Source of the DNA: Candidatus Latescibacterota bacterium
GTDB lineage: Bacteria; Latescibacterota; UBA2968; UBA8231
Direction: 5' to 3'
DNA: 64,000 nucleotides
Assembly (NCBI GenBank): GCA_965208105.1
Contig: OZ242318.1
Coordinates: forward strand, 2,016,001-2,080,000
The position numbers and the translations under genes are program-made. Shown piece after piece: positions 10,778 to 44,601 of this stretch. The notes beneath the pieces were generated by a model that was not told where the DNA came from, did no database searches, and saw only the letters and a program-made list of their open reading frames with translations. Positions within the stretch are counted from its first letter, which is position 1. Each line of letters opens with the position of its first letter.

Positions 10778-10865
10778 CGGCTAACGGCTGGCCATTCACG
10801 AAGCCGCGTAGCGGCTTTCAGCGAAGGGGCGTATGCCCCGAAGCCGTGAATGGGCTTGTTAGGTG
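10778..10865 (-). repeat. attC-like site 14
   Basis: cggctaac...ccattcacg/cgtgaatgg...gttaggtg. Confidence 0.85.
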
Positions 10866-11560
10866 TCGTCGCAACGTTCTATCATGGCCCTACAGTGGCC
10901 CTCAAGATGGCGAAGATCGTCCTGATCCAGACTGCAATCGCTGCTGCAGACATACGAATCAAGATCCATTTGAATCAGTTGATGAAAACGGGCATCCAAT
11001 ACTCTCAAGCCCCATTCGCCGGCCTCTATCTTAGTGCAGAGATGACATTCCACCAGGGTAAATGCAACTCGGCAAAACATCAACGCAGGATTCTTGAATT
11101 TGGTTCGTATCTGCGGAACTACGTGCCGAATGCACTGCCGCAGTAAAGGCCACGGAACGCGTTTCAGAATCCTGTTGTGAGGTGTACCGAGAAGATCCCT
11201 CCCTGATTCAAAAATATCTTGCCTGAATAAAAGAAAATCTTTGCTACCATCAGGCTTGAGGATAATTGTATTGTTCATCTTGAGAAGGAAATCAACAGGA
11301 GTGGGGAAAACGTCGGCATTGATATGGTCTATCGTTGCTGCTGTTATGTCGTAAGACAGAGACTGTGATTTTACGAGTTCCAGGAGATGTACCCTTTTCT
11401 CCGACGGAGTGAGACGCTTCGTGGCAAGAAGAAGGTCAACATCACTCGTCTCAGGGTTGCCAAATTCCCGAGCGCGTGAGCCACCCATCCAAACCGATTC
11501 CAGTTCTCCTTCGTAAATCTCACCGAGTCCCTCCACAAAGCCATCTATTGCACTTCTCAT
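10859..11560 (-). CDS. Nucleotidyltransferase, AadA/DUF4111-like, cassette
   Basis: GGSRA...SDVDLL NTase motif; C-terminal TKIEAGEW. Confidence 0.72.
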   Translation of the reverse strand: MRSAIDGFVEGLGEIYEGELESVWMGGSRAREFGNPETSDVDLLLATKRLTPSEKRVHLLELVKSQSLSYDITAATIDHINADVFPTPVDFLLKMNNTIILKPDGSKDFLLFRQDIFESGRDLLGTPHNRILKRVPWPLLRQCIRHVVPQIRTKFKNPALMFCRVAFTLVECHLCTKIEAGEWGLRVLDARFHQLIQMDLDSYVCSSDCSLDQDDLRHLEGHCRAMIERCDDT

Positions 11561-11673
11561 AGCAAGAAATTCCGGGGAGAAATAAATCGGGCTCCTGTCC
11601 GACCTCTATCTAACATCGAGGAAGCATATCCTGGAGTGATGTCAATAAGGCCAGCTTCACTCATATGCGATGA

Positions 11674-11754
11674 CACCAAACGTTCAGTGGCTCACGAACC
11701 CGCGATATCGGGTTTGTGCGGAGCGAAGCGGAGCCGTGAGCCACATGTTATGCG
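11674..11754 (-). repeat. attC-like site 15
   Basis: caccaaac...gtggctcacg/cgtgagccac...gttatgcg. Confidence 0.82.
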
Positions 11755-11798
11755 CATGTGAGGTTATCTGGACCCGCCAAACACGAGGGGGACGAAGC

Positions 11799-12578
11799 TT
11801 AGCATCCGTCTTTTTGAAGCACAATCTGCCGGAAGCCCCATTCTATCTGAGTGGTTCCCCCGCCCTCAGAGACAATTGCTTCCAACTCACGTTCCAGCGC
11901 TCCAATTTCTTGCTCCCCATAGTTCGCTTGAATGAAAGGCTCATTCTTCCACGACTGGATGTTCAAGGTAAACATAGTCGCTGCCTGGAAGTTGGACACG
12001 CCTATACGTGCGACGTTACTTGTGGCCTTGTCCAAGCCGTCGGGAATGTCCATCTTTTCCAGCGTAGGTCCGACACAAAGTTGGGTAGATTGGTCGGCCA
12101 AAAGAGCCTCCACAATACCGACATACTTGGAGAAAACGTGGTGACTGGTTTCAATCCATTCAACTTCTTCCAACAGCAAGAGCCCATTGTGTACCATCTG
12201 GCTGGCCCAATTTCGGATTACTTTTCTCGGCTCTCTAAAATGCGTCAGCAAGAGCCGGCAGAATAGGAAATTGGCAGCCCCGACGGGAAATGGAACCACA
12301 GTTATATCGTGCAGTTGAAACGATACCCTATCGGTCTCTCCCTCTTTGGCGAGGGAGATGAAGCGGTCTGAATTGTCAAGGCCAACGATCTTATCCGCGT
12401 GCGTCGCTTCTGCGAGCATATGTGTCGAGTATCCGGGACCGCATCCCAAATCTAAGGCTAGCTGAGGACGGTTTCTGAGAGATCTCAGGATGAATTCTCG
12501 GGACGAGGCTGCGTATACTTCGGCCAGATACTTAAGGCGCCTAGCAGCCAGATCCGTGTCCGTGAATTGGTATTTCAC
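11799..12578 (-). CDS. Class I SAM-dependent methyltransferase, cassette
   Basis: LDLGCGPG, VGLDNS. Confidence 0.88.
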   Translation of the reverse strand: MKYQFTDTDLAARRLKYLAEVYAASSREFILRSLRNRPQLALDLGCGPGYSTHMLAEATHADKIVGLDNSDRFISLAKEGETDRVSFQLHDITVVPFPVGAANFLFCRLLLTHFREPRKVIRNWASQMVHNGLLLLEEVEWIETSHHVFSKYVGIVEALLADQSTQLCVGPTLEKMDIPDGLDKATSNVARIGVSNFQAATMFTLNIQSWKNEPFIQANYGEQEIGALERELEAIVSEGGGTTQIEWGFRQIVLQKDGC

Positions 12579-12668
12579 TGTGCTTATGGTCTTTCTGAAC
12601 TCAATGTCCCAACTGTAATCCCTTCGTTCCCTCTCTCCTACCGCCCTATTTTCCCGATACCACCATTG

Positions 12669-12753
12669 CGCATAACGTTCTCGCCGTGCCCGAACCGCGA
12701 ATGCGGTTGCGTGAAGGGCGCATTCCCGAAGCCGGGCACGGACGTGTTATGCG
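12669..12753 (-). repeat. attC-like site 16 (prototype)
   Basis: cgcataac gttctcg ccgtgcccg aaccgcgaatgcggtt ... cgggcacgg acgt gttatgcg. Confidence 0.9.
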
Positions 12754-12781
12754 GAGCTGGTGACGTCCAGCCTCGAGCTAC

Positions 12782-13796: not shown

Positions 13797-13881
13797 CGCA
13801 TAACGATTTCGCCGTGCCCGAACCGCGAAGCGGTTGCGCGAGGCGGCCTGGCGCCGAAGCCGGGCACGGACGTGTTATGGG
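13797..13881 (-). repeat. attC-like site 17
   Basis: cgcataac...gttatggg. Confidence 0.88.
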
Positions 13882-14336: not shown

Positions 14337-14408
14337 CCTATAACGCTTTCCGGTTGCCGAAGGCCAAGGCGCCCGAGGGCGCCGCAGCGGCAACCGCGCT
14401 GTTATCGG
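14337..14408 (-). repeat. attC-like site 18 (short, single inner hairpin)
   Basis: cctataac...cggttgccg/cggcaaccg...gttatcgg. Confidence 0.85.
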
Positions 14409-15465: not shown

Positions 15466-15549
15466 CCGATAACGTTTTCGTGCCCCCGAAACGCAAAGCG
15501 GTTGGGCGAAGGGCCGAACGGCCCGAAGCCGGAGACCCGGTGTTACCTG
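15466..15549 (-). repeat. attC-like site 19
   Basis: ccgataac...gttacctg. Confidence 0.82.
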
Positions 15550-16310: not shown

Positions 16311-16400
16311 CAGGTAACGTTCCGCCGGTTTGCGAACCGCGAAGCGGTTGCTGATGGCCAAGGCGGCAAGGCCGCCACAGCGGAAACCGGATGTTACCTG
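16311..16400 (-). repeat. attC-like site 20
   Basis: caggtaac...ccggttt/aaaccgg...gttacctg. Confidence 0.87.
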
Positions 16401-17528: not shown

Positions 17529-17613
17529 CAGGTAACGTCTTCGCCGTGCCCGAACCGCGAATGCAGTTGCGCGAAGGGCGAATGCCCGAACCCGGGCACG
17601 GACGTGTTAGGCG
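17529..17613 (-). repeat. attC-like site 21
   Basis: caggtaac...gttaggcg. Confidence 0.88.
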
Positions 17614-18034: not shown

Positions 18035-18056
18035 GATGCCCTCCATCTGTGCATTA

Positions 18057-18138
18057 CGCCTTGTTCTCGCCGTGCCCGAACCGCGAATGCGGTTGCGCGA
18101 AGGGCATAGCCCGAAGCCGGGCACGGACGTGTTATAGG
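18057..18138 (-). repeat. attC-like site 22 (AAC core deleted)
   Basis: cgccttgttctcgccgtgcccg...gttatagg. Confidence 0.82.
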
Positions 18139-18810: not shown

Positions 18811-18894
18811 CCTATAACGTTTTTTGGCTACCCGACCTGCTCAGCAGGTCCCGAAGGGCCGGGCGAAGCCCGAGCGGGTAGACGATGTTAGGCG
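18811..18894 (-). repeat. attC-like site 23
   Basis: cctataac...ctacccg/cgggtag...gttaggcg. Confidence 0.83.
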
Positions 18895-19794: not shown

Positions 19795-19886
19795 TGCCAA
19801 ACGTTATGCCGGTTGCCGAACTCGCGAAGCGAGTTGCCGTAGGCCAGGGAGCACCTGCGCCGAAGCGGCAAACATGCTGTTAGCCG
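19795..19886 (-). repeat. attC-like site 24
   Basis: tgccaaac...ttgccg/cggcaa...gttagccg. Confidence 0.8.
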
Positions 19887-20653: not shown

Positions 20654-20752
20654 CGGCTAACGTTCCGCCGGTTTGCGAAGCCCGAGCTTGTCGAGGGGTT
20701 GCCGAAGGCCGGGCGCCAAAGGCGCCGCAGCGCAACACCGCGCTGTTACCTG
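20654..20752 (-). repeat. attC-like site 25
   Basis: cggctaac...gttacctg. Confidence 0.87.
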
Positions 20753-21313: not shown

Positions 21314-21398
21314 CAGGTAACGATATCGCCGTGCCCGAACCGCGAATGCGGTTGCGTAAAGGGCGTAACCCCGAAGCCGGGCACGGACGTGTTAGCCG
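21314..21398 (-). repeat. attC-like site 26
   Basis: caggtaac...gttagccg; interior identical to site 38. Confidence 0.9.
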
Positions 21399-22084
21399 TT
21401 GGGCCCCGCTTTAGAGGACAACCATTGAGCCAGAATCTCGGCGACACTGCTCATTGCCATCTGAAGATTTGTCTTGAAATCATCAGGTGCGGATTCGTCG
21501 GCATCGTCCGTGACTCCTCTCATCTCAAGGTACGGGACTTCGCTGAACCTGCACGCGCGCGCCCCGCCGGCGCCCTCCCAGGCGACAACCAGAGCTTGAG
21601 TCCGCTCACGAACCTGCACTCTCCGACTGGGTTCGACGATGTCCTCATCACCGCTTGCGATTACACCGAAGTGGACTTCGTGGCCCTCCACAGCCGCCGG
21701 CATCCCACGCAAACTCTGGAGCGCTGTCGGATCACCCTCGAATGAGGGCACCGGACTGTCGTTGAACCTGTTGATGTAATCGTGCTCAACCGTTCGGGTG
21801 CCGACCACCACATCCCCGACGCGCAGTCCATCCGCCAGCCCCCCAGCGGCACCTGTGCAAATCACGAGGTCCCAACCTGATCCCGCATCCAGAAGATGCT
21901 GCAGCTGAACTCCGAACTGAGCCTTGCCTGTGCCACCCACCGCAAGAGTGAGTCCGAGGTCGGGGAACTGGGTGACAGGCAGCCGCCCTATGGTCTTAGC
22001 TCGTTGATCATGCCCGGCCGCCACGAGATCGTCGCGAATGGCTTCCAGCTCTTCTAGCATTGGTGCTACAGCGGCCACTTGCAT
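21392..22084 (-). CDS. MTA/SAH nucleosidase (PNP_UDP_1) family protein, cassette copy 1
   Basis: PMLEEL, GGTGKA, TGAAGG, GDVVVG, IASGD, RGVTD. Confidence 0.88.
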   Translation of the reverse strand: MQVAAVAPMLEELEAIRDDLVAAGHDQRAKTIGRLPVTQFPDLGLTLAVGGTGKAQFGVQLQHLLDAGSGWDLVICTGAAGGLADGLRVGDVVVGTRTVEHDYINRFNDSPVPSFEGDPTALQSLRGMPAAVEGHEVHFGVIASGDEDIVEPSRRVQVRERTQALVVAWEGAGGARACRFSEVPYLEMRGVTDDADESAPDDFKTNLQMAMSSVAEILAQWLSSKAGPNG

Positions 22085-22132
22085 CTAATTCACATCCCAA
22101 GTGTCCCTTTGTGCTTCCCTTAGGGGGCCTTA

Positions 22133-22216: not shown

Positions 22217-22250
22217 CCGTGACAGCCTGCAAACAATCAATTAGGAGCGG

Positions 22251-23051: not shown

Positions 23052-23086
23052 TTGATCGGCTTAGTACACAGCGTCATCTGGTATGG

Positions 23087-33269: not shown

Positions 33270-33354
33270 CGGCTAACGTTTTCGCCGTGCCCGAACCGCG
33301 AATGCGGTTGCGCGAAGGGCGCATGCCCGAAGCCGGACACGGACGTGTTAGCGG
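33270..33354 (-). repeat. attC-like site 37
   Basis: cggctaac...gttagcgg. Confidence 0.88.
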
Positions 33355-33487: not shown

Positions 33488-34021
33488 TTACTCGGGTATC
33501 TCGAACACTTTGGCCAAGAAGTCATCTTTGTACCCGTTATTAGCGTCAGCCGTAGGAATTCCCTTGTTTACTGCACTCATTTTCAACGCGGCGTATTCAT
33601 CAAATAAATCAGGATCACTTAGCATTCTGTCTCTGAAAATCATAGCATCTCGGTATCGCTCCGAGTCTCTCGAGGTAATGTGAGCATGTATATTGAATTG
33701 GTTGCCGTCTGTTACGATCCCGGCGAACATGACGGGGGAGCTGTCATTACCCGAAGGCTCTCGCCAATCAGCATCGTGAAAGCCAAGTGATTTCAAAGTA
33801 GAGATGACCGCTGGTATCCTGTGTTCGTCAATGAGGACGAAGATGTCAATGATCGGCTTGCTAACCATGCCGGCAATCGATGTGCTCCCGAAGTGTGCAA
33901 CTTTACATGAAGTGACTTCCGATTCAACCAATTTTTTTATTCTGGAGAATACTCTCCCATAGATTGGATTGTGTGGAAGCATTTTCACGGGTTCGTATCG
34001 GTACCTTACAAGTTGTGTCAC
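33488..34021 (-). CDS. GrpB (UPF0157) family protein, cassette
   Basis: HFGSTSIAGMVSKPIIDI, FRD, Y..LK. Confidence 0.87.
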   Translation of the reverse strand: MTQLVRYRYEPVKMLPHNPIYGRVFSRIKKLVESEVTSCKVAHFGSTSIAGMVSKPIIDIFVLIDEHRIPAVISTLKSLGFHDADWREPSGNDSSPVMFAGIVTDGNQFNIHAHITSRDSERYRDAMIFRDRMLSDPDLFDEYAALKMSAVNKGIPTADANNGYKDDFLAKVFEIPE

Positions 34022-34058
34022 CTCTCACCCTTTCTAACGTCCATTTCTATGCCCATTC

Positions 34059-34143
34059 CCGCTAACGATATCGCCGTGCCCGAACCGCGAATGCGGTTGC
34101 GTAAAGGGCGTAACCCCGAAGCCGGGCACGGACGTGTTAGCCG
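34059..34143 (-). repeat. attC-like site 38
   Basis: ccgctaac...gttagccg. Confidence 0.9.
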
Positions 34144-34829
34144 TTGGGCCCCGCTTTAGAGGACAACCATTGAGCCAGAATCTCGGCGACACTGCTCATT
34201 GCCATCTGAAGATTTGTCTTGAAATCATCAGGTGCGGATTCGTCGGCATCGTCCGTGACTCCTCTCATCTCAAGGTACGGGACTTCGCTGAACCTGCACG
34301 CGCGCGCCCCGCCGGCGCCCTCCCAGGCGACAACCAGAGCTTGAGTCCGCTCACGAACCTGCACTCTCCGACTGGGTTCGACGATGTCCTCATCACCGCT
34401 TGCGATTACACCGAAGTGGACTTCGTGGCCCTCCACAGCCGCCGGCATCCCACGCAAACTCTGGAGCGCTGTCGGATCACCCTCGAATGAGGGCACCGGA
34501 CTGTCGTTGAACCTGTTGATGTAATCGTGCTCAACCGTTCGGGTGCCGACCACCACATCCCCGACGCGCAGTCCATCCGCCAGCCCCCCAGCGGCACCTG
34601 TGCAAATCACGAGGTCCCAACCTGATCCCGCATCCAGAAGATGCTGCAGCTGAACTCCGAACTGAGCCTTGCCTGTGCCACCCACCGCAAGAGTGAGTCC
34701 GAGGTCGGGGAACTGGGTGACAGGCAGCCGCCCTATGGTCTTAGCTCGTTGATCATGCCCGGCCGCCACGAGATCGTCGCGAATGGCTTCCAGCTCTTCT
34801 AGCATTGGTGCTACAGCGGCCACTTGCAT
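34137..34829 (-). CDS. MTA/SAH nucleosidase family protein, cassette copy 2
   Basis: Protein identical to 21392..22084. Confidence 0.88.
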   Translation of the reverse strand: MQVAAVAPMLEELEAIRDDLVAAGHDQRAKTIGRLPVTQFPDLGLTLAVGGTGKAQFGVQLQHLLDAGSGWDLVICTGAAGGLADGLRVGDVVVGTRTVEHDYINRFNDSPVPSFEGDPTALQSLRGMPAAVEGHEVHFGVIASGDEDIVEPSRRVQVRERTQALVVAWEGAGGARACRFSEVPYLEMRGVTDDADESAPDDFKTNLQMAMSSVAEILAQWLSSKAGPNG

Positions 34830-34877
34830 CTAATTCACATCCCAAGTGTCCCTTTGTGCTTCCCTTAGGGGGCCTTT

Positions 34878-34953
34878 CGGCTAACGTCCCCGCCGTGCCC
34901 GAACCGCGAAGCGGTTGCGCGGAGGGCGTAGCCGGGCACGGTCGTGTTAGCTG
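34878..34953 (-). repeat. attC-like site 39
   Basis: cggctaac...gttagctg. Confidence 0.87.
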
Positions 34954-35435
34954 CTGGCTCTGTTCTCTCTCAGCCAATTTCTCAAGAAATCTGCTCTATC
35001 TGACCTGCCAAGTGCTTCGTACGCCGAACACTCGTAAGCCAAGTTTAGCACAGGAACCTGAATGCCTTCCGTTTCGACTGACAGTCTGTGCTCTGCAGGA
35101 TCAATTGGGTCCTCCCATGATCCATCTGAAAGAAGTTTTTGCACATCTCCCATGATCTCTACTCGTACTCCTCCGATTTCAAGCACACCAAAGTGAGATC
35201 GGATATTGCCAGAAGTCGAAAAACCTACCTTCTCGGTGGAGTACTCGCACAAGAGGTCTTCGATTTTGTAGGCCCCCGCGCCATCTGTTTGGAGATCAAT
35301 ATCGTGGACATCCACCGGCACTCCTTGCAATCGAAAACCCAAACTGCCGGTGATTGCCCAATTCACGTCGGCCCCATCGAGGCGCTCAACGACCTTGGCT
35401 AATGCTTGTCCGATCGTAGTAGGAACTGTAACCAT
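34947..35435 (-). CDS. Nucleotidyltransferase-domain protein, cassette
   Basis: WAITGSLG..LQGV.V.VHDIDLQTD. Confidence 0.78.
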   Translation of the reverse strand: MVTVPTTIGQALAKVVERLDGADVNWAITGSLGFRLQGVPVDVHDIDLQTDGAGAYKIEDLLCEYSTEKVGFSTSGNIRSHFGVLEIGGVRVEIMGDVQKLLSDGSWEDPIDPAEHRLSVETEGIQVPVLNLAYECSAYEALGRSDRADFLRNWLRENRASS

Positions 35436-35450
35436 GTGCTTCGGAGCTTG

Positions 35451-35553
35451 CAGCTAACGTATTGCCAGTTTGCGAACGCCGAGCTTGTCGAGGCGTTTCC
35501 CGAAGGGACAAGGCGCCAAAAGGCGCCGAAGCGCAACACCGTGCTGTTATGCG
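35451..35553 (-). repeat. attC-like site 40
   Basis: cagctaac...gttatgcg. Confidence 0.85.
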
Positions 35554-35568
35554 AAGATCGCCCTGACC

Positions 35569-36219
35569 CTAGTTCCGAGAACGTTCCAAAGCCAATCTTG
35601 CTCCCAATCCAACAAATATCACCCCTGCAAGACGCTGAATGGCCATCATGGCCCGAGTCGATGGCCGGAGCGCCCTTGACATCCTTGCAGCAAAGGTCGC
35701 CACAACTAGGCACCAAACAGTACCAGTGAATACGAACGTGCTACCCAAGACAAAGAATGCGAATGGTCTATAAGAGCTACTAGCGTCGATAAACTGGGGC
35801 AGAAATGCCAGAAAGAACATTGCAACCTTCGGGTTTAGGAGATTCGTGACTATGCCTCGCCGATATGTTGTCGTGACCCCTCTGAGATGCATTCCTTCGT
35901 TCGAACAAATGTCTGTCGACTGTCGGCGAAGCAGCATATCAACTCCCAAGTATACGAGGTACGCAGCGCCGAGTAGCTTCACTGCTGCGAAGGCAGCTGG
36001 CGACGTGGTTATTATGGCCGAGAGTCCCAGTGTTGCTAGCGCAAGATGAATAACGCCACCCGTGCTGACGCCGAGTGCTGATGCAAGCCCTGATATCCGA
36101 CCCTCCGCGACGCTGCGCGTGACGATGTAGATGGTATCCTGACCTGGTGTGATATTCAGAATAATGCCCGCCGTTACGAACACCCAGAAATTTACAATGC
36201 CGAGTGATTGGATATCCAT
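35569..36219 (-). CDS. LysE/RhtB family translocator, cassette
   Basis: LNITPGQD, GAAYLVYLG, NLLNPKVAMFFLAFLPQF. Confidence 0.92.
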   Translation of the reverse strand: MDIQSLGIVNFWVFVTAGIILNITPGQDTIYIVTRSVAEGRISGLASALGVSTGGVIHLALATLGLSAIITTSPAAFAAVKLLGAAYLVYLGVDMLLRRQSTDICSNEGMHLRGVTTTYRRGIVTNLLNPKVAMFFLAFLPQFIDASSSYRPFAFFVLGSTFVFTGTVWCLVVATFAARMSRALRPSTRAMMAIQRLAGVIFVGLGARLALERSRN

Positions 36220-36269
36220 GTCCACCTCACAAATATGTTCCAAAATTTGACGAATCTACGGAGCGAATT

Positions 36270-36362
36270 CACATAACGTTATGCCGGTTTGCGAACCCAC
36301 GAAGTGAATTGCCAAAGGCTAAGGCGCGAACAGCGCCGAAGCGCAAACCGTGCTGTTACCCG
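36270..36362 (-). repeat. attC-like site 41
   Basis: cacataac...cggtttgcg/cgcaaaccg...gttacccg. Confidence 0.87.
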
Positions 36363-36390
36363 ATGTGTCAAACCACCCGACGCGCCGGCG

Positions 36391-36771
36391 CTACTTCACT
36401 GGCTCTCGAGGAACGGCACGAATTGCATCATCTAGCTGGCGCGACAATGGCGAAAATTCGGCACCAGATTTCGGATCAATCACTGCAATCGTGTAGTCAA
36501 CTGTGGTATCAGCGTAAACCTGAACAACCTTGTAGTCGATGGACGGGTTCGGATCCACAACGCGGATTGAATACTTAGCGCCCAACTCAGGAACATGCAC
36601 ATGGCGCATTTGTTTCAAAGCGTGCTCGACCCTTCGAACCGAAGACGAGTCACCTTGAACGACCAGCGATAATGGCTCTTCAGCGGGCTCGTCGCAGCTA
36701 GTCACCAGGAGTGCCCCTACTGCTGAACAGATAATCCAGAGTCGTGGTCGCATCATGTTCTGATCTCGCAT
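36391..36771 (-). CDS. Hypothetical lipoprotein, cassette
   Basis: Hydrophobic N-terminus ending LLVTSC. Confidence 0.55.
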   Translation of the reverse strand: MRDQNMMRPRLWIICSAVGALLVTSCDEPAEEPLSLVVQGDSSSVRRVEHALKQMRHVHVPELGAKYSIRVVDPNPSIDYKVVQVYADTTVDYTIAVIDPKSGAEFSPLSRQLDDAIRAVPREPVK

Positions 36772-36773
36772 TT

Positions 36774-36866
36774 CCTATAACGGGTTGCCGATGTGCGAAC
36801 TCGCGGAGCGAGTTGGCGAAGCCCCAAGGCCCGAATGGGCCGCAGCGCACAACGCGCTGTTATACG
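36774..36866 (-). repeat. attC-like site 42
   Basis: cctataac...gtgcg/cgcac...gttatacg. Confidence 0.85.
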
Positions 36867-36906
36867 GCGTGAATCTCTGCTTCAGATTGAGCGCTATTTT
36901 CCTTAC

Positions 36907-37215
36907 TCAAATAGAGCAGTGTTGAGCCACGGGCACGACATCCGCCTGGCTCCGATCGTCCGAACCGGCCAGTCGAATCATCGTCGACTCATGGAGGAAG
37001 TCGTCGATGTCAAACCGTCTTGTAGGCCCGGGCAAGCCAAAGGACTGCTGCTCGAGCCCCTTCGCGAGTGAGGACTTGCCAGCGCAGTTCATCCCAGGGA
37101 TGCCAACGAGGTAATGCCGGGCGACTCCCTCAGCTCCTTCCGCGATCCGCTGGGCCACATGGTTCAGCAGGCCCGACTGTCGGACGCGAACGGTCGTGGT
37201 GTCTTGATCCGTCAT
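36907..37215 (-). pseudogene. Truncated uridine-kinase-like P-loop protein fragment
   Basis: VGIPGMNCAGKSSLA Walker A and IDDFL, then ends prematurely. Confidence 0.55.
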
Positions 37216-37269
37216 CTCGCTTCCGATCTCACGACTCGGCATGGGCCGCCATGCCTGATGGTTGCAAAT

Positions 37270-37328
37270 GGATAACGTCGCGGATCAGGCGCGGCTACTC
37301 GCCGTCGCCTGCATCCGGCTGGTTCGGC
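37270..37328 (-). repeat. Classical 59-bp attC (59-base element), unrelated to the array's own site family
   Basis: Minus strand: GCCGAAC cagcc GGATGCAGGCG ... CGCGCCTGATCC gcgac GTTATCC; extra base in L''. Confidence 0.8.
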
Positions 37329-38764
37329 GACCCTTCGTTCACATTTCGGAACCTGAAACTGTAAAGATCGGTATCCTTCATCTCGAATCGCAGACGAATA
37401 GTCTGTCCAGCCAACCGCTTCACATCGCTGCCGCTCTTCCAGGCAACGACGCAATCGATTTCGTCGCCTTTTAGGAGGCGGCATGCAACCAGTCCAAAGC
37501 CGTCGAGCGGCGTGCCTCTTTCGTCCTGGACTTCCACTCGCAGACTGCCGCCTTCCCGTGTAACGAAGTTCAGGACAAGTTGCCCGCCATCGAACGTGAT
37601 GGGCTTGGTCACCAATTCGCCCCCTTGGGTCCCGGCCCGGACTGATGCAAATCCGTCAACCCGGTACGTGAACCGGCGCAGCCTGGACTGTCCGGCGTCC
37701 TCGTACCCTTCGGAAGCATAGACGGAGACCTCCTTGTCTCCGGTCCGCACTATCCCCCACTGCATGTAATTGCCGCGATTGCCCTGGCGATCTTTCGGAG
37801 CGGTACGCGGGATCACCGGTTCCTTGCCCCAGAAATAGAACCGACGCCCGTTGCGACTGGCCATCAAGTAGGGCTCCGTCGATTCATCTTTCATCAGCCG
37901 CGTCGGAAAGCCGATATAGATTTGCGGTGCCCGCTCGTACGGCAGCACGGCGTTCGTGTACAGTTGAAACCCATCGCCGTAGACATCGGTGTTGGCGTAC
38001 GACAAACGTTCTGACCGGTCGTATTGCCATCTCTCGAAATCGTCTGAGGTAACAGTACGAATCATGCGCTGCTGGCCGTCCCACTCACGAAAAAACATGA
38101 CGTATGTCTTACGCAATGCATCCCAGAAAACCAGGTTCTGGGAATCGAAGAAGTGGCGTTGCCCCACGTGGATCTTTCCATCCGGAACAAGAGTCGGGTC
38201 ACCCTTATTGACCGGATGCCAATGAATGGCGTCCGACGACACGTAACCGTAAAGGGCGGCACTCCCCCGCTCCGCGATTGCCTTGTACCGGGCATGGGAC
38301 GGGCAGTCTGGATTGGTGTCTTTGAAGGGCGTGAAAGCGCTCGTGCCCAGCCTGGGATCGGAACCCAGAATCAGGTTGTTGGTTTTCGAGCCGGCGAACT
38401 CCACTAGTCCAAGACTTGGCTTATGCCAATGGATACCATCAGTACTTTGCGCATAACCCACACGGGGATTCTTCCAGTCGTCCCGGCGGCGGCCGGAAGC
38501 GCGATAGTACATCCGGTACGTCTCTGCATCTTTGAATATGGTAGCAGACATCGATGTGCAACCCTCCCACTGCGCGTCATACACCGCCGCCACCTCCCGC
38601 GGCACGGGTCTATGCAAATGCAGACGGACATCGTCCCCAATCCTGTCGATCAGCGCGTCATCTACAAACAACTGCCTGCGGTCCGCGATACTCTTCGGTT
38701 GTGTCATTTCTCCTCCTTGTGCCATGGCGGTCTGGCCGCCCAACAAGGCCAAAGCGACTTTCAA
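37295..38764 (-). CDS. Five-bladed beta-propeller glycoside hydrolase-like protein, cassette (start uncertain)
   Basis: RRQLFVDD, YRMYY, YAQSTDGIHWHKP, FDSQN, R.DGFASV. Confidence 0.7.
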   Translation of the reverse strand: MKVALALLGGQTAMAQGGEMTQPKSIADRRQLFVDDALIDRIGDDVRLHLHRPVPREVAAVYDAQWEGCTSMSATIFKDAETYRMYYRASGRRRDDWKNPRVGYAQSTDGIHWHKPSLGLVEFAGSKTNNLILGSDPRLGTSAFTPFKDTNPDCPSHARYKAIAERGSAALYGYVSSDAIHWHPVNKGDPTLVPDGKIHVGQRHFFDSQNLVFWDALRKTYVMFFREWDGQQRMIRTVTSDDFERWQYDRSERLSYANTDVYGDGFQLYTNAVLPYERAPQIYIGFPTRLMKDESTEPYLMASRNGRRFYFWGKEPVIPRTAPKDRQGNRGNYMQWGIVRTGDKEVSVYASEGYEDAGQSRLRRFTYRVDGFASVRAGTQGGELVTKPITFDGGQLVLNFVTREGGSLRVEVQDERGTPLDGFGLVACRLLKGDEIDCVVAWKSGSDVKRLAGQTIRLRFEMKDTDLYSFRFRNVNEGSPNQPDAGDGE

Positions 38765-38802
38765 AATGCATTATAATAACACCAATTCGTTTTTTCTCAT
38801 GC

Positions 38803-38901
38803 CGTATAACGTTGTGCCGGTTTGCGAACGCCGAGCTTGTTGAGGCGTTGCCGAAGGCCAAGCCGCCGTAGGCGGCGAAGCGGAAACAGGTGTGTTAGAT
38901 G
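38803..38901 (-). repeat. attC-like site 43
   Basis: cgtataac...gttagatg. Confidence 0.85.
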
Positions 38902-38949
38902 AAGTGGGATTCAAACCAATGCCAAATCTGCATAGAAAACATCTTGAGA

Positions 38950-39594
38950 TCAGTCGCCGGTGCCTTGTCCGGTCAGTTGCGTCGTTTGGTTCAACGGCTT
39001 TCTCGCCACGGCCTTGTTGATTGGGTGCGTGTGCCGAATACTACCCGGATGCTCATCCTCAATGGTGTAGCTCTCTTCTAATTCGATGTCCCAATCCTCA
39101 TAGAGTGAGAACAATTTGCCTTCTTGGAACAGTCCGAGGCAGTGCGCTTCCAGATCCGCTGGCGGAGGAATCCTGTCAGTGAAAACGACAACGACGTTCG
39201 TGCCGCCCGGAATTGTATGAGACTTGAATTCCGAGACTAACTTCATCCATTGTTTTCGAGCGATCAGATGCAGACACCCGTGCGAGACAATGAGGTCGAA
39301 CTTGCCAGAGAATGAATACTGACGCATATCAGCGACATCGGCGCGTATGCTGATTCCATCACGGTCCGCCAGCATTTGCAACTTCCGGATGCCTGACTCC
39401 GAAATATCGACTGCCGTAACATCAAACCCCTGCTTCGCAAGGAAGAGTGCATTCCGTCCTTCTCCGCAACCTAAGTCCAAAACTTTTGCTCCCTGCACCA
39501 TCTGATTTGCAAGTTCTAGGATCTCAGCACTCGGATCGCCAAATGTCTTAGCCTCAAGATCCGCGTACCCTTTGGTCCATGGAAAATCAATCAT
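38950..39594 (-). CDS. TehB-like SAM methyltransferase, cassette
   Basis: VLDLGCGEGRNALFLAKQGFDVTAVDIS; start taken as ATG 39594. Confidence 0.87.
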   Translation of the reverse strand: MIDFPWTKGYADLEAKTFGDPSAEILELANQMVQGAKVLDLGCGEGRNALFLAKQGFDVTAVDISESGIRKLQMLADRDGISIRADVADMRQYSFSGKFDLIVSHGCLHLIARKQWMKLVSEFKSHTIPGGTNVVVVFTDRIPPPADLEAHCLGLFQEGKLFSLYEDWDIELEESYTIEDEHPGSIRHTHPINKAVARKPLNQTTQLTGQGTGD

Positions 39595-39702
39595 CGAATT
39601 CACTGGCTGTCGAACTTGCGCTTGAGTGGCGACTATGAAAGTATATCTCCAGAAAAATATTGGGAGATACACTGCAAGGCCCCGACTATACTTTTCCCAT
39701 TT

Positions 39703-39786
39703 CATCTAACGTTCTCGCCGTGCCCGAACCGCGAAGCGGTTGCGCGAAGGGCGAAAGCACGAAGCCGGGCACGGACGTGTTACCTG
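39703..39786 (-). repeat. attC-like site 44
   Basis: catctaac...gttacctg. Confidence 0.9.
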
Positions 39787-39831
39787 CCGTGGCCATCCTG
39801 CACGAATGAAAAATTCCTCGTAGCAGCCGAT

Positions 39832-40629
39832 TCACACCTCTGGCTTAAAGCCTACGGCGCGACACCACGCAAAGGCCGCATAGGCATCGGGAGATACCGA
39901 CCACTCCTCCCAGGCTTCGGTTATTGCTTTCAACTCGTCATCTGTAGCAAGTCCGTGTTCTTGCGCGTTCTGAACAAAGGCTCCGTCCTGGAAGTAGTGC
40001 ACTTGTCTGCTCCCAAACGTCTTCACTTTGTCCTCAGTTCCATAGCAGAGATATTTGGAAGTGGCAGTCACATCATTAAAACTCGCGCCATTCAATAGAC
40101 CGCGAAGTTCGCGGCCGCAATATGGACCGCCGGTGCCTTTCAGAGTCCAGAGCTGCTCTCGAATTGAATAGCTGCGTCGAAGTAAGGACGAACGTGGTCC
40201 GCTGACGATGAAACCACCGTATTCCACGTCTGCGATTCCTAATACCCCACCGGGTTTGAGGACGCGCTTCACCTCCAGGAGTGCGTCTTGTGGGCGATCC
40301 AGGGTCTCGGCCACCGAGTGGCAGAGGCAGGCATCGAAGCTATTGTCTGCGAAATCGAGTTTGTAAACATCACCGACGCAAAAATCAATGTTTCCAATCG
40401 CGTGGACGCGAGCATACGTTTCAGCATCTCCGAAACCATCATCGCTAAGATCAACACCGACTACGCTACGCACCTTCTCGGCCACACCCAAAGCAATGCT
40501 TCCGCCACCGCATCCTACGTCCAGGACTTTGAACTCTGGTGCCAAGTGTGGAAACAGGAACTCGGCATAATCGTCCGCGTTCCGGCCGGCCATGTAGTCT
40601 TCAAAGCTCATGCCAAAGGTGTCTTCCAA
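39832..40629 (-). CDS. UbiE-like SAM methyltransferase, cassette copy 2 (diverged)
   Basis: Paralogue of 27682..28479 with several substitutions. Confidence 0.9.
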   Translation of the reverse strand: MEDTFGMSFEDYMAGRNADDYAEFLFPHLAPEFKVLDVGCGGGSIALGVAEKVRSVVGVDLSDDGFGDAETYARVHAIGNIDFCVGDVYKLDFADNSFDACLCHSVAETLDRPQDALLEVKRVLKPGGVLGIADVEYGGFIVSGPRSSLLRRSYSIREQLWTLKGTGGPYCGRELRGLLNGASFNDVTATSKYLCYGTEDKVKTFGSRQVHYFQDGAFVQNAQEHGLATDDELKAITEAWEEWSVSPDAYAAFAWCRAVGFKPEV

Positions 40630-40644
40630 TGCGGAAAGCCATGG

Positions 40645-40804
40645 CAGGTAACGTTCTTAAGTGGCCGAACTGGCAAAGCCACAACTCATCCTAACCGCTG
40701 TGCCGCTCGGGCAGCCACTACTCCTTCCCAACGTCCGCACGTTAGGGCCAGTTGGGACGGAGGCCGCCGCAGGGCGGCCGCAGCCGGCCACTGTGTGTTA
40801 TGCG
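40645..40804 (-). repeat. attC-like site 45 (160 bp, expanded inner arm)
   Basis: caggtaac...agtggccg/cggccact...gttatgcg; aactggc/gccagtt encloses cctaac...gttagg. Confidence 0.8.
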
Positions 40805-40856
40805 AAGGTGCCCCCCGAGGCTACCCGCACCGCGTTCCACTACCCTCACAATGCTG

Positions 40857-41450
40857 TCATGTCGAGGTCCTCAATAGATGACGAACGGGCTCGTCAGACC
40901 ACAGCTGCACCTCAATGAACCGCTCCACAGGTGTCCCCCAGTAGTTGTCGTATTCAACTCGAGGCATTCCGTACTCCCCGATCACGGCCTCAAGTTCATC
41001 GATGAGGTACACGCGATCGTGATACGGTCTCGCCTCCTGGCGCGGGATTCCGAAATCCGCCCCGAAACCCATGGCCTCGAAACTGTCAGAATAGGTGAAG
41101 CTAGTGACGGGTGACGGGAGGTCGTTCAGAGCGACCACGACTTCCTTGGTGTCGGGAGCGAGCTGCTTGAACCACTCGGATCTACCCAGGACAAAGTAGT
41201 GTGGAGCGCTCCGCTCGGGCCGTCCGCCCCGGGCGACGAAGAGGCCTCGGAGCCGTTCCTCCGTCAGCCGTCGCATTTCAATATACTTGCGGCCGAACGG
41301 CCGCTTGTGATCACGGACTCGTCGGAGTTCCTGAAGCCCCTGCCGCACACCCTCAAGGTCTGTCTCAGCGAGGTCTGACAGGTTCAGAAACGGATGTCTG
41401 TCGGACAGGTGATAGTGCGTTACGAATTCTGGAATCTTCAATCGCGCCAT
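40857..41450 (-). CDS. Hypothetical protein, cassette
   Basis: 197-aa ORF filling the cassette (PFLNLSDL, PHYFVLG, IEVQLWSD). Confidence 0.75.
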   Translation of the reverse strand: MARLKIPEFVTHYHLSDRHPFLNLSDLAETDLEGVRQGLQELRRVRDHKRPFGRKYIEMRRLTEERLRGLFVARGGRPERSAPHYFVLGRSEWFKQLAPDTKEVVVALNDLPSPVTSFTYSDSFEAMGFGADFGIPRQEARPYHDRVYLIDELEAVIGEYGMPRVEYDNYWGTPVERFIEVQLWSDEPVRHLLRTST

Positions 41451-41500
41451 CTCCGACTACCGCTAGGACCCCTCCCTTCCAAATACGTTCCTGGCACTTT

Positions 41501-41592
41501 TGCATAACGTTCTGCCGGTTTGCGAACCCGCGCAGCGGGTTGCCGAAGGCCAAGGCGCGTCTGCGCCGCAGCGAAAACCGATGTGTTATCTG
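41501..41592 (-). repeat. attC-like site 46
   Basis: tgcataac...gttatctg. Confidence 0.87.
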
Positions 41593-41634
41593 ACATGCAA
41601 TTCGGTGAGCTCCAAGTCGAATAGATGCATTCCT

Positions 41635-42084
41635 CTATACGAACTCCTGAGCACGTACAGTGAATGGTGAAGTTGTATATGACTGAAACAAAACCCGCCC
41701 ATCAAATGACAGAAGCTGCCGAAGCCTTCGGCTGTAGCCAGGGTGATCTATCATCTTATCGGCATCTGTCTTCTGAACCCACGAAACATCAAGAGTCTCC
41801 TCTCCAATCCGGGCGTCGCCAGACAACCAAGATCCAAGGAAATCGAAAATAACTCGACGCTCACTAAGGTTGGTATACACCCCAACAAGTCGATTAGCCG
41901 AGGCCAGGATGTTGGCCTCTTCTCTGACTTCACGGATGACCCCATCGAGGATGGACTCACCTTCCTCTATTTGGCCACCTGGAAACTCCCACCCCCTTCG
42001 TGGGGTTTTAACCAGAAGGACATCGTCTCCTCGTTCCACGAGAATTCCAGCAGCGACGATATGTTTCGGTGGGTTCGGATGCAT
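41635..42084 (-). CDS. NUDIX hydrolase, cassette
   Basis: WEFPGGQIEEGESILDGVIREVREEA Nudix box. Confidence 0.92.
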   Translation of the reverse strand: MHPNPPKHIVAAGILVERGDDVLLVKTPRRGWEFPGGQIEEGESILDGVIREVREEANILASANRLVGVYTNLSERRVIFDFLGSWLSGDARIGEETLDVSWVQKTDADKMIDHPGYSRRLRQLLSFDGRVLFQSYTTSPFTVRAQEFV

Positions 42085-42174
42085 TTGTTGCCTTCAGGAT
42101 GACCTTAAATTCCGGTCGATTCGGAATATCCAACCGGACGGGGATGGTAAGATAGTAGCCAAAAAAATGCATGT

Positions 42175-42259
42175 CAGATAACGTTCTCGCCGTGCCCGAA
42201 CCGCGAATGCGGTTGCGCGAAGGGCGAATGCCCGAAGCCGGGCACGGACGTGTTATAGG
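42175..42259 (-). repeat. attC-like site 47
   Basis: cagataac...gttatagg. Confidence 0.9.
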
Positions 42260-42302
42260 ATGTGCCAGATTGGGTGGAGGGGAAAGACATTCCACCAGCA
42301 CA

Positions 42303-42799
42303 TTATGTCCAATATTTTCGGCAGATAAAGGCCAATTCATAGAGAGCCGCGAAATCCTGGTCGTCAGCGGAAAACAGATCTGTTGCCTTATCGTACTCGA
42401 TAGTCCGCACTTCAGTGATCGAACCTCCCGCACATGAATGGGGTGGGGGAAATGAGGTAGCCTGGGCTGGGCCTCTTGTGAAACGCAATGGTACATCCCG
42501 ATCGGTTTGACGTGGCTCAAAGCTGCGCCCGTTTCCTCCATCATTTCCCGATGTGCAGCCTGCAACTAGCTCTCCCCAGGTTCCAGCGTCCCGCCAGGCA
42601 ACACCCACCTGCCATTCTCGCGACGGGTCACGAGGCACTCAGTCGCCGAGACAAATGGAATTACATAGGACGAGCCGCAACACGAATCTACGACTTCGCG
42701 ATCGAAATTGACGAAATCAATGCCCTGCCTCCCGCGATCCCGCAATGCTGGAAGATCTCGGACAAATCTGTCGAAATCTGAGTCATCCAGAGATTTCAC
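42303..42799 (-). pseudogene. NUDIX hydrolase pseudogene (TAG in the Nudix box plus downstream frameshift)
   Basis: LPGGTLEPGES*LQAAHREMMEETG; C-terminus in another frame. Confidence 0.8.
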
Positions 42800-42821
42800 A
42801 GCACTTCCCTATCTGGCATTT

Positions 42822-42911
42822 CCTATAACGTTCCCGCGGGCTGCGAACCCGTGCAGCGGGTTTTCTGCGAAGGCGCGAATGCGCCGAAGCCGTAGCCCGT
42901 CGTGTTAGCCG
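42822..42911 (-). repeat. attC-like site 48
   Basis: cctataac...cgggctgcg/cgtagcccg...gttagccg. Confidence 0.88.
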
Positions 42912-42962
42912 TGTGTGCAGCCCGCACTGGCCTTGCCAGGACGGCAAGGCCTCTTGATTTGC

Positions 42963-43514
42963 TTAGGCATCCGTGGGACCAGGCGACCAGCCGATCGATT
43001 GGGCCCAACCGTCCGCACGGGACATGATTTCCCAGATTATTGGATTTTTTGAATCGGTGTACCTCTTCCTGTCCTCTCGGTACTTCATAGCCAACTCCCG
43101 TTTAACCTTCTCGTAACGTTTCTGCTCTTCCAAGTGTTCTCGGAGATAGTCACGAAACAACAAGGCGAACTGCTCAGACCAGCTGCCAGCCTTGCGGACG
43201 TGGATATGTGTTCGTCTCTTCCCTGGCAGTTCTCGAAAATACCGCTTTGTCCTTTCAGGGTTGTCCTTCCGCCAGATGTAGCCAATTTGCTCCAGCGGAA
43301 CTCGAAACGGATCAACGGGGTCGAGTTCCTTCACTGAAATCTGCACATCAATGATGGGCTTGGCTGCCAGACCTGCGATTGAGGTAGATCCAATATGGTC
43401 AATCCGGATCGCCACGTTCCCAAGAGCTTCCTTCATCCTGATCCCGAGCTCGCGGAAGAGCATTGGCCACTCATCCGAGTAGTCCTTGATCTCAATCACG
43501 TAAGGTGTCGTCAT
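42963..43514 (-). CDS. GrpB (UPF0157) family protein, cassette
   Basis: IDHIGSTSIAGLAAKPIIDVQ, RTHIHVR, LFRDYLR. Confidence 0.9.
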   Translation of the reverse strand: MTTPYVIEIKDYSDEWPMLFRELGIRMKEALGNVAIRIDHIGSTSIAGLAAKPIIDVQISVKELDPVDPFRVPLEQIGYIWRKDNPERTKRYFRELPGKRRTHIHVRKAGSWSEQFALLFRDYLREHLEEQKRYEKVKRELAMKYREDRKRYTDSKNPIIWEIMSRADGWAQSIGWSPGPTDA

Positions 43515-43583
43515 TGATCGACTGCTCAGTTCATGGATTTGGCGGCGCAGGAGGCGCCGCCGCATTCTTTGCGGGCTGCATTA

Positions 43584-43688
43584 CGGCTAACGTTCTCGCG
43601 GGCTGCGAACCTGCCGCAGGCAGGTTTCCTGCGAAGGCCGAATGGCCGGAGCCGCAGCCCGCCGCAGCGTAAACCGCTGTGTTATCGG
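43584..43688 (-). repeat. attC-like site 49
   Basis: cggctaac...gttatcgg. Confidence 0.83.
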
Positions 43689-43712
43689 AAGGTCAATACA
43701 TCCCTCGCGTGC

Positions 43713-44489
43713 CTACTTGACCGCCAAAAGGTTGATCCTGCGGAAGGTTTCGAAACACGTGCCATCCGTTTGACGCGTCTCCTCAACCATTCGTTTTGTT
43801 ACAACCTCGTGAAATCGACTCCCTGTTTCAGAATCGAGGTACTGCTTGAATGGTATCACTGCCGGATGGTCAACCCAACCTAACATTGTCTGCGTATCGG
43901 GGAAGAATCGATCAGCGTTCTCTCCCCATACCCGCAGACTCGAAAAGGATGAGTTTCCTACGAGCTTCTCGTATGCTTCCACTGAAGGCATGTACCAAGG
44001 CCATTCGAAATCTGAAAAAGCTCCGGAAAATTCCTCGCTGGCCATTACCTCCAAGGCTACACGATTGAACGTGCCGCAGTTCCCCTCACCTGCAAAATTA
44101 ACCCTAACTACGCCAGAGCGTTTGAGAGCACGACAAAAGATCTCGAGGAGCATCTGGTGGTCCTTGATCCAGTGCAAAGTGGCATTGGAGAATATCACAT
44201 CGAACTCGTCCTGAAATTCTGCGTCGAGAATATCGATCAGTCGGAACGAAAGATTGGCTCGGTGGATATTCTGTGCCGCCTCGATCATTCCTTCAGAGGT
44301 GTCGATTCCAACAACTGAACCGGCGGAAACTGCGTCAGCGAGATTCGCGGTGAGGGTGCCGTCGCCGCAACCTACATCCAGAATGCACTCGTTGCCGGCG
44401 AGATCAAGTTCGTCGATCAATCGCGCTCCCCATTCTTTCTGGTGAGCGGACGTCTCCTGGTAGCGCTTTCCGTCGAAATCTACTCTCAA
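43713..44489 (-). CDS. Trans-aconitate methyltransferase-like SAM methyltransferase, cassette
   Basis: ILDVGCGDG, FDVIFSNATLHWI; start taken as TTG 44489 (the track ORF runs into the attC). Confidence 0.87.
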   Translation of the reverse strand: MRVDFDGKRYQETSAHQKEWGARLIDELDLAGNECILDVGCGDGTLTANLADAVSAGSVVGIDTSEGMIEAAQNIHRANLSFRLIDILDAEFQDEFDVIFSNATLHWIKDHQMLLEIFCRALKRSGVVRVNFAGEGNCGTFNRVALEVMASEEFSGAFSDFEWPWYMPSVEAYEKLVGNSSFSSLRVWGENADRFFPDTQTMLGWVDHPAVIPFKQYLDSETGSRFHEVVTKRMVEETRQTDGTCFETFRRINLLAVK

Positions 44490-44503
44490 CTCACTTTGAC
44501 TTT

Positions 44504-44601
44504 CCGATAACGTTCCGCCGGTTTGCGAACGCCGAGCTTGACGAAGGGTTGCCGAAGGCCAAGGCGCGACAGCGCCGCAGCGCAAACCGTGCTGTTAGAT
44601 G
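44504..44601 (-). repeat. attC-like site 50 (first cassette)
   Basis: ccgataac...cggtttgcg/cgcaaaccg...gttagatg. Confidence 0.9.

Follow-up and report, generated by a model that had tools for sequence, protein, structure and literature searches.

A probable sedentary integron of a non-canonical kind, with an IntI-like integrase lacking the I2 insertion, in a Latescibacterota genome

The DNA analyzed here is a 64,000-nucleotide (nt) stretch from a Candidatus Latescibacterota bacterium (GenBank assembly GCA_965208105.1, contig OZ242318.1, positions 2,016,001 to 2,080,000, forward strand; hereafter 'the window'), in which a long series of imperfect palindromes lies next to a tyrosine recombinase gene. 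We consider it likely that these repeats represent attC-type recombination sites in a non-canonical kind of sedentary chromosomal integron, whose integrase resembles IntI but lacks the I2 helix. An original prediction, made from the letters of the window, had described integron-type recombination sites within 10778-44601. The identification holds, with an array, end boxes, conserved pairing and an attI-like site all present, but the range was too narrow, as the array actually starts at 201.

Positions 201 to 44600 form a gene-cassette array with approximately 46 attC-type sites on the + strand and cassette open reading frames (ORFs) on the − strand. The sites were collected with a covariance model (R1), built from 12 like-sized sites with a hand-supplied structure and run with filters off, which returned 68 matches in the window at E≤10. 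The 44 matches with E≤1e-4 are all on the + strand and all between 201 and 44600. Each of the remaining 24 (11 on +, 13 on −) scores at most 18 bits, apart from the best match on the − strand, whose 18.2 bits fall on a site (23088-23169) that scores 73.2 bits on the + strand. A weak site at 9885-9970, one at 40645-40803 not picked up by the model and four or five degenerate remnants complete the total of about 46 good sites. Sites are 63-159 nt long, starting with TAAC and ending with GTTA on the + strand. Read leftward, one site stands at the 3′ end of every cassette ORF (80-490 codons), in a single orientation throughout, which is the arrangement typical of attC. Two further clusters of R1 matches, all on the + strand, occur in the same genome (G000:C1), with 7 at about 1,040,600-1,046,050 (L140) and 12 at 2,738,400-2,750,700 (L141), and an R1 search of the 20 kb upstream of the window (L139) revealed no sites.

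Folding with DNA parameters and an anchored parse give the same predicted architecture for the + strand. At its base is the R box, where TAAC pairs with GTTA (T-A in 41, A-T in 42, A-T in 41 and C-G in 40 of the 44 window sites matched by R1). These inverted AAC/GTT end boxes, a defining trait of attC, recur in sites from distant phyla (TAAC in 50 of 53, GTTA in 52 of 53). The G after TAAC stands opposite the T before GTTA, giving a G-T pair in 41 of the 44 sites of the window and, once relatives are included, in 93 of 99 aligned sites. Inside this pair come 4 unpaired nucleotides (TTCT, TTCC, TTTT and similar) on the 5′ arm only, and then two covarying base pairs (CG 25 and GC 9, followed by GC 18 and CG 14, of 44). 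In the 24 sites that parse cleanly, a bulge of 1-2 nt interrupts the 3′ arm in 20 (A 10, T 6, C 2, G 1, AT 1; none in 4), and beyond it an uninterrupted L stem of 9 bp keeps its pairing while its sequence varies, with 12 different L′ sequences among them. The central spacer between the R and L boxes is one-sided: its 5′ unpaired run, consisting of the conserved G plus the loop, is 5 nt in 20 of the 24 and 4 nt in the other 4, and in 22 the 5′ arm exceeds the 3′ arm by 3 nt. In canonical sites, extrahelical bases are defined on the R″-L″ arm, with L″ carrying a conserved G, followed 6-8 nt later by a T (Bouvier 2009, PMC2727003), and this arrangement is absent from the 24 cleanly parsed sites. 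Here the original prediction had seen an asymmetric loop of about 7 versus 4 nt. The asymmetry stands, and is better described as a G-T wobble, a 4-nt 5′ loop, two covarying base pairs and a 3′ bulge of 0-1 nt.

Above the L stem, the terminal structure opens with a conserved AAC...GTT hairpin. Since the predicted fold leaves no unpaired base between the L stem and this hairpin, the two helices may be stacked on each other. Inner hairpins number two in 22 of the 45 sites, three in another 19 and one in the remaining 4, and their terminal loops are purine-rich (GAA, GNA, GAAT). The earlier description of these sites as three-way junctions therefore fits only about half of them, namely those with two inner hairpins.

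The pairing is supported by extensive covariation. In a model-fitted alignment of the 44 window sequences with 29 pairs, 88.3% of cells are paired versus 72.1% in shuffles, and 22 of the 29 pairs change on both sides (193 cells). None of 500 shuffles matches any of five covariation measures, and sliding the partners by 1-3 columns leaves 28-47% paired. In the L stem, both partners change in 7 of 9 pairs, with 92.6% of cells paired, so pairing rather than sequence is conserved, as in attC. When 55 sites from relatives and distant phyla are added (99 in total), 24 of the 29 pairs and 533 cells change on both sides, again with 0 of 500 shuffles reaching this level; the inner hairpins likewise covary. 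That pairing persists while the inner stem changes had been noticed at the outset, and all six stems quoted at the time are present: the type A stem at 12670 and elsewhere, cggtttgcg/cgcaaaccg at 36271 and 44505, ccattcacg at 10779, gtggctcacg at 11675, ctacccg at 18812 and agtggccg/cggccact at 40645-40803. The route to this model included two discarded procedures. A geometric scan with a threshold of 5 of 7 outer box pairs recovered no more than 16 sites; this threshold was wrong, since pairing is missing at the outer three box positions in 20-24 of the 44 sites. RNAalifold applied to a MAFFT alignment of 33 sites returned 0 pairs, with the middle misaligned, and was replaced by the hand-given structure on 12 like-sized sites.

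By integron convention, the + strand is the bottom strand, because the ORFs precede the sites on the − strand; this had been predicted, and both cassette orientation and crossover position agree with it. The crossover lies in the 5′ TAAC box, matching the canonical G/TT, as indicated by two observations. First, two copies of one cassette, 99% identical (21318-22134 and 34063-34879), both run precisely from TAAC to the ...GGCTAA of the next site, and the three bases before the left TAAC differ between the copies. Second, when the regions upstream of the integrase gene are compared among five genomes, the sequence left of a TAAC at 45047 is unrelated, and the sequence to its right is conserved up to the integrase gene. 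From sequence comparison, this is the picture expected of an attI site joined to different first cassettes. The attI-like site (45047-45135, + strand) contains an inverted repeat, CGAAC-N3-4-GTTCG, with flanking positions that covary across the five genomes compared; the repeat is either a hairpin or a palindromic binding site. Its CGAAC also follows the L stem in cassette sites. The repeat lies at 45062-45090 (TATGCGAACC...GGTTCGTATA), and over the five genomes, with the homologous positions in L089-L092 included, both of its sides change (GCGAAC/GTTCGC, CCGAAC/GTTCGG, CCCGAAC/GTTCGGG). The first cassette carries a pyrophosphatase-like ORF (44625-44990, − strand; PF00719, E 2.9e-08).

Cumulative GC skew along the genome is lowest near 2.96 Mb and highest near 0.38 Mb. 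Read this way, the skew makes the − strand leading at all three clusters, with the + strand, which bears the sites, as the template for leading-strand synthesis. This is the orientation reported for sedentary chromosomal integrons.

Divergent from the cassettes, the gene at 45252-46190 (+ strand) encodes a tyrosine recombinase (PF00589, E 4.9e-41) whose R, K, HxxR, H and Y motifs are visible. Its best NCBIfam match is the IntI model TIGR02249, which aligns in two stretches with 216 bits, below the cut-off of 265. The XerA, XerC and XerD models all score lower than TIGR02249, and the XerC and XerD equivalog cut-offs are missed (173.7 versus 335 and 172.2 versus 329.6 bits). An alignment to VchIntIA (2a3v) passes from chain residue 178 to 239, skipping residues 179-238 against 18 query residues. 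Ten canonical IntIs from the same taxonomic class, which score 350-469 bits over the full model and include one 53.5% identical to IntI1, have 31+10 extra residues (LP.AL.RKYP...EW.WQ) that are absent from all 27 I2-less proteins aligned. In an AlphaFold (AF2) model of P0001, a 98%-identical homolog of 309 amino acids (other intact homologs have 293-314), with a mean predicted local distance difference test (pLDDT) score of 79, residues 194-210 contain no helix, only short strands; the best Foldseek match of this model is 2a3v (E 1.3e-16), followed by XerA. The alignment gap, the extra residues of canonical proteins and the P0001 model all bear out the original proposal that the adjacent integrase lacks the I2 region, and by these comparisons approximately 41 residues of the IntI-specific insertion are missing. 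In a tree made with a quick method, using three Xer-like or other recombinases of the same genome as the outgroup, the canonical IntIs form one clade (support 99) and group with the I2-less proteins against the outgroup (support 92).

This enzyme and this type of site occur together elsewhere. The genome, a single 4.85-Mb contig estimated to be 93.9% complete, has no canonical IntI above the cut-off in a whole-genome search. In four close relatives (G001, G016, G014 and G010), whose integrases are 80-93% identical, all 24 R1 matches within 20 kb lie on the 5′ side of the integrase gene and on its strand, with none in the 20 kb on the 3′ flank, so that position and orientation are the same as in the window. 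More distant members of the I2-less family, 47-64% identical, occupy 80 loci in many phyla. A second covariance model built from the 99 sites (R2) finds matches at 22 of these loci, including ones in Paenibacillus and Desulfitobacterium, and in 21 of the 22 every R2 match (45 of 45) is downstream of the integrase gene on the opposite strand. In Paenibacillus (L039) and Desulfitobacterium (L019), the integrase gene is followed by a co-directional ORF-site-ORF-site series, and two loci of G042, which has six or more, also show arrays co-directional with the integrase gene. Among 49 distant sites, the 5′ arm is 3-4 nt longer in 46 and the 3′ bulge is absent in 30. No canonical IntI above the cut-off was found in any of the five distant genomes searched. 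Conversely, there are no R1 or R2 matches beside four canonical intI loci of the same class (L135-L138), and a direct-repeat search beside two of them (L135 and L138) revealed no cassette array. Whether these recombinases and their sites constitute an unrecognized class of integrons spanning phyla, with members seen in this lineage, Paenibacillus, Desulfitobacterium, Dehalococcoidia, Nitrospirae, Atribacteria and a contig labelled Methanoperedens, is a question on which we stand slightly on the doubting side, though the idea deserves serious consideration. The family may be a 'missing intermediate' or a sister of integron integrases.

Comparison with known integrons places these elements more precisely. 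Like canonical attC sites of class 1 integrons and of Vibrio (the Vibrio cholerae repeat, VCR), they have AAC/GTT end boxes, a G after AAC, conservation of structure instead of sequence, an unpaired spacer, a variable and sometimes branched terminal structure (the branching is described for VCR in Bouvier 2009, PMC2727003), a single site behind every ORF, and a crossover in whichever box adjoins the following cassette. Five attC sites from a plasmid class 1 integron (L142), which has the same layout as the window, were folded. They have bulged 3′-arm bases, including a G inside the L stem, whereas our sites have no conserved bulged G inside the 3′ L arm. The aadA1-type site at that locus has arms of equal length, 15 nt each by our count, with 3′-arm bulges; in VCR the arm opposite to ours is the longer one, 34 versus 31 nt (PMC2727003), while here the 5′ (R′-L′) arm is longer by 3-4 nt. 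Also unlike canonical attC is the conserved AAC...GTT hairpin, which sits immediately on the L stem in the predicted fold. A CCGC-GAA-GCGG hairpin is common to these sites and aadA1-type sites. R2 gives the class 1 sites 14-20 bits on their bottom strand, compared with 23-98 bits for window sites under R1. Because R2 scores the class 1 sites on that strand, and because both kinds carry GNA caps, the two families are related; they are distinguished by the missing extrahelical G of the L stem and by the one-sided 5′ loop.

The integrase shows the same mixture. As with IntI (TIGR02249; VchIntIA, 2a3v), its best sequence and fold matches, its conserved catalytic region and its divergent position beside attI and cassettes are those of an integron integrase, but about 41 residues of the IntI-specific insertion, the I2 region among them, are missing from it, and the I2-less gene in many distant loci points the same way as the cassettes, unlike IntI. 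IntegronFinder's definition would probably file the array as a cluster of attC sites lacking an integron integrase (CALIN); unlike a CALIN, it is accompanied by a specific recombinase family and a conserved attI. A precedent for an I2-less tyrosine recombinase acting on a folded single strand exists in XerCD, which integrates folded single-stranded CTX phage DNA, according to the part of PMC7790495 that deals with it. That system differs in using a phage attachment site at dif, with no cassette array, attI or dedicated integrase.

The original prediction also addressed how the bottom strand is chosen, suggesting that GNA-capped mini-hairpins may make that strand fold more stably and so replace the recognition of extrahelical bases in an I2-less system. 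The strand specificity of the caps is clear. C-GNA-G triloops closed by a G+C stem of at least 3 bp occur 35 times on the + strand and once on the − strand in 45 sites, 27 of which have at least one; their density is 9.1 per kb in sites versus 0.3-0.7 per kb in cassette interiors and outside the array, and C-GAAT-G occurs 15 times. The d(GCGAAGC) hairpin is unusually stable. Furthermore, the + strand has the lower predicted minimum free energy in 38 of 45 sites (equal in 3, higher in 4), by a mean of 1.5 kcal/mol (Wilcoxon p = 1.8e-7), 30 of 49 distant sites have no 3′ bulge, and a GAA to TTC change in attCaadA1 lowered IntI1 binding in vitro (quoted in Bouvier 2009, PMC2727003). However, the DNA parameter set gives GAA and TTC triloops identical energy and carries no information on GNA stability, so the comparison of strand energies that was called for does favor the + strand, but only slightly and for reasons other than loops: since the model scores loops alike, the difference comes from G-T versus A-C pairs (58 versus 30 in stems, apart from the conserved G-T). 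The same caps (C-GAA-G or C-GTA-G) are found on 4 of the 5 class 1 attC sites folded from L142, and because those sites are served by the I2-bearing IntI1, the cap is a general attC trait. In the VCR experiments described in Bouvier 2009 (PMC2727003), replacing the terminal structure with GAA or TTC had minor consequences in vivo (1.6-fold up, 2.4-fold down), with strand choice unaltered, and the central spacer was able to impose strand choice without extrahelical bases. Asymmetric interruptions offer a structural selector here as well, namely the longer 5′ arm (22 of 24 window sites, 46 of 49 distant ones), the 3′ bulge (20 of 24) and the conserved G-T pair (93 of 99). We therefore regard selection by GNA folding stability as unlikely. 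The loops would instead be an inherited attC trait that may aid folding or binding and is not specific to the I2-less system.

Two other explanations question the enzyme or the substrate. This could be an ordinary attC cluster that has lost its canonical integrase, with the I2-less recombinase an unrelated neighbor, for instance part of a mobile element. Such a history would accommodate the multiple identical-scoring copies in G042 and G043, the G043 gene beside a canonical intI, and the broken gene in this genome. It fits poorly with the constant position and orientation in four of four close relatives, the conservation of attI from TAAC onward, the consistent placement of R2 matches at 21 distant loci, and the grouping of the I2-less family with IntI and not with the Xer-like proteins of the genome (support 92). 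Moreover, no canonical IntI was found in any of the six genomes searched, nor was this site type found beside the four canonical intI loci. We consider this explanation quite improbable. Alternatively, the sites might be recombined as double-stranded DNA by Xer-like two-strand exchange, with pairing as a by-product. An enzyme without I2, which the literature ties to single-strand recombination (PMC4792948 and PMC7790495, in the passages on this insertion), and an attI with a palindromic CGAAC...GTTCG would suit this idea. Yet L arms 40-60 nt apart stay complementary, with both partners changed in those 533 cells of the 99 sites and none of 500 shuffles comparable; the inner hairpins covary; only a fold makes sense of the conserved G-T pair and of a loop confined to one arm; and XerCD integrates folded single-stranded CTX DNA without I2 (PMC7790495). 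Double-stranded exchange thus seems very unlikely to us.

Several facts weigh against a sedentary integron with an I2-less integrase. The integrase gene in this genome is broken by an in-frame TAA at codon 58 (45423-45425), where P0001 has Glu. The remaining frame is open, and the inactivation looks recent, unless it is an assembly error; because of this nonsense codon, the array is probably frozen at present. Of the 34 distant loci whose downstream flank reaches 3 kb or more, only 15 have a match to R2. G043 twice has an I2-less gene some 400 bp downstream of a canonical intI (C1 2493564-2495712 and 2158606-2160397), and both G042 and G043 carry several I2-less copies with identical scores, so the gene could travel on a mobile element. 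The quick tree, with three outgroup proteins, leaves the order of the canonical and I2-less groups open. Among 45 sites, 21 parse poorly, with mismatches and with hybrid arms at 1949 and 9885, and three (20655, 29287 and 35452) have, in our reading, an extra C inside the 3′ L arm that resembles a canonical extrahelical base. The covariation alignments were fitted to the model's own structure; we take the effect as real in view of the controls with slid partners and of the 12 different L sequences found in 24 sites. That the sites recombine, how they fold and which strand is used are all matters that we infer.

If the repeats are indeed attC-type sites of such an integron, the + strand would fold when single-stranded, and the folded strand would be the substrate. 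The I2-less family would supply the cognate enzyme, whose monomers would bind the R box and the L stem. Cleavage would occur in TAAC, and one strand would be exchanged with attI or another site. The two strands could be told apart by the one-sided 4-nt loop by the cleavage point, by the G-T pair, which becomes A-C on the other strand, and by the bulge where present, with neither I2 contacts to extrahelical bases nor GNA loop stability involved in the choice. I2 would be dispensable because the L stem has no extrahelical base to accommodate.

The I2 insertion is held to be necessary for cassette capture and to confer single-strand recombination, and a 'lack of intermediates' has been noted by the field (statements in PMC4792948 and PMC7790495). 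Integrons have been reported to be nearly absent from Gram-positive bacteria, and one stated view excludes from the integron integrases any recombinase near attC sites that lacks the IntI domain. The pertinent section of Smyshlyaev 2021 calls the insertion 'not fully conserved' in an integron-like subgroup, and the 21 integrases without the domain in Supplementary Figure S1 of Cury 2016 may include members of the I2-less family. A search of the open-access literature found no paper on integron-like arrays served by I2-less integrases. The structural claims about the sites (covariation, a branched top and GNA caps) are ordinary for attC. What that literature does not describe is the combination of an I2-less IntI-like integrase, a conserved attI and arrays of up to approximately 46 sites with a distinctive geometry, in distant phyla that include Gram-positives, and this combination contradicts the view just mentioned. 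If the proposal is correct, cassette capture via folded sites requires neither the I2 helix nor the canonical extrahelical bases. Activity of the family on these sites would make strand choice and one-strand exchange without I2 directly testable, broaden the known range of integron-like gene capture and give many 'CALIN' arrays a candidate enzyme.

The individual sites, all on the + strand, are given here with R1 scores in bits. Type A sites (CCGTGCCCG) are at 12670-12752 (96.5), 13798-13880 (91.4), 17530-17612 (84.9), 21315-21397 (88.5; left edge of the duplicated cassette), 26584-26665 (91.5), 27551-27636 (91.3), 33271-33353 (95.9), 34060-34142 (90.7; second copy of the duplicated cassette), 34879-34952 (80.0; short), 39704-39785 (94.4) and 42176-42258 (97.6; the best match). 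Type B sites (CGGTTTGCG) are at 16312-16399 (42.9; three inner hairpins), 36271-36361 (35.6), 41502-41591 (37.2) and 44505-44600 (33.6; the last before the first cassette), the second and fourth having the cggtttgcg/cgcaaaccg stem. Other stems mark the sites at 3040-3114 (GTGCCCCCG type, 24.8), 10779-10864 (ccattcacg, 66.7), 11675-11753 (gtggctcacg, 26.8) and 18812-18893 (ctacccg, 28.9). Box variants occur at 201-285 (TAAT in the 5′ box, 72.9), 5843-5933 (TAAG, 23.3), 9184-9265 (TATC, 78.3), 19796-19885 (AAAC, 27.8) and 22134-22217 (TAAA, 44.8), and the 5′ box is degenerate at 18051-18137 (73.3). One inner hairpin is present in the short site at 14338-14407 (25.4) and in the shortest, 63 nt long, at 31750-31812 (32.9).

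Three sites have the extra C mentioned above: 20655-20751 (24.6), which has an 11-nt loop in hairpin 1, 29287-29383 (25.5; repeat family D16), which is 99% like it, and 35452-35552 (23.6). The site at 23088-23169 has an 11-bp stem and no 3′ bulge, the model match to that at 43585-43687 (44.1) ends at 43675, and the 159-nt site at 40645-40803, missed by R1, was recognized from its DNA fold, with the stem AGTGGCCG/CGGCCACT. In the site at 1949-2034 (34.0), the two L arms are mismatched (L pairing 4.5 of 9), making it a hybrid or degenerate site. The remaining sites are at 4883-4968 (40.8), 7445-7526 (57.8), 8523-8616 (38.6), 15467-15548 (50.0), 24185-24275 (27.6), 28496-28587 (31.6), 30003-30084 (59.8), 30957-31039 (73.7), 36775-36865 (36.1), 38804-38900 (23.1) and 42823-42910 (66.0). 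The weak site at 9885-9970 (14.8, E 0.062) has two unpaired L arms and a 5′ half (CTAACTGCCTGTAT.CGAACC) that, in a by-eye comparison, resembles attI from 45047 onward and not the other cassette sites; it may be a relic of an attI × attC event or a former array start.

The cassette products are mixed and include GrpB, NUDIX, methyltransferase, LysE and phosphorylase proteins and a 2″-aminoglycoside-nucleotidyltransferase-like protein; 3 of the 10 products checked have no Pfam match, and an Rfam search of the window returned 0 matches. The nucleotidyltransferase-like ORF (34947-35435, − strand) matches Pfam Aminoglyc_resit (aminoglycoside-2″-adenylyltransferase) with E 2.7e-25. Its host appears to be environmental, because this stretch occurs in sponge and marine metagenome runs; a check of sequencing runs turned up no RNA run containing it. 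Three cassettes are each present in two copies at 97-99% identity (21318-22134 and 34063-34879; 27668-28499 and 39818-40649; 22146-23146 and 30015-31015), and duplicates this similar show recent activity. An IS91-family transposase and a 'site-specific integrase' gene were seen inside the cassette array of a Thiodictyon plasmid integron (L143, 8407-10405). Finally, public metagenome contigs that cover 34000-46400 (runs X1, X4, X6 and X9, from four studies) break at sites and rejoin cassettes in other orders, for example joining 34887 to 41504 and 38839 to 44546 in X6, and in X9 a cassette site, not attI, follows the first cassette. These contigs are short, 90% alike and possibly from other strains, and we count them as a hint, but not evidence, that cassettes are reshuffled; the joins suggest that cassette order differs between populations.

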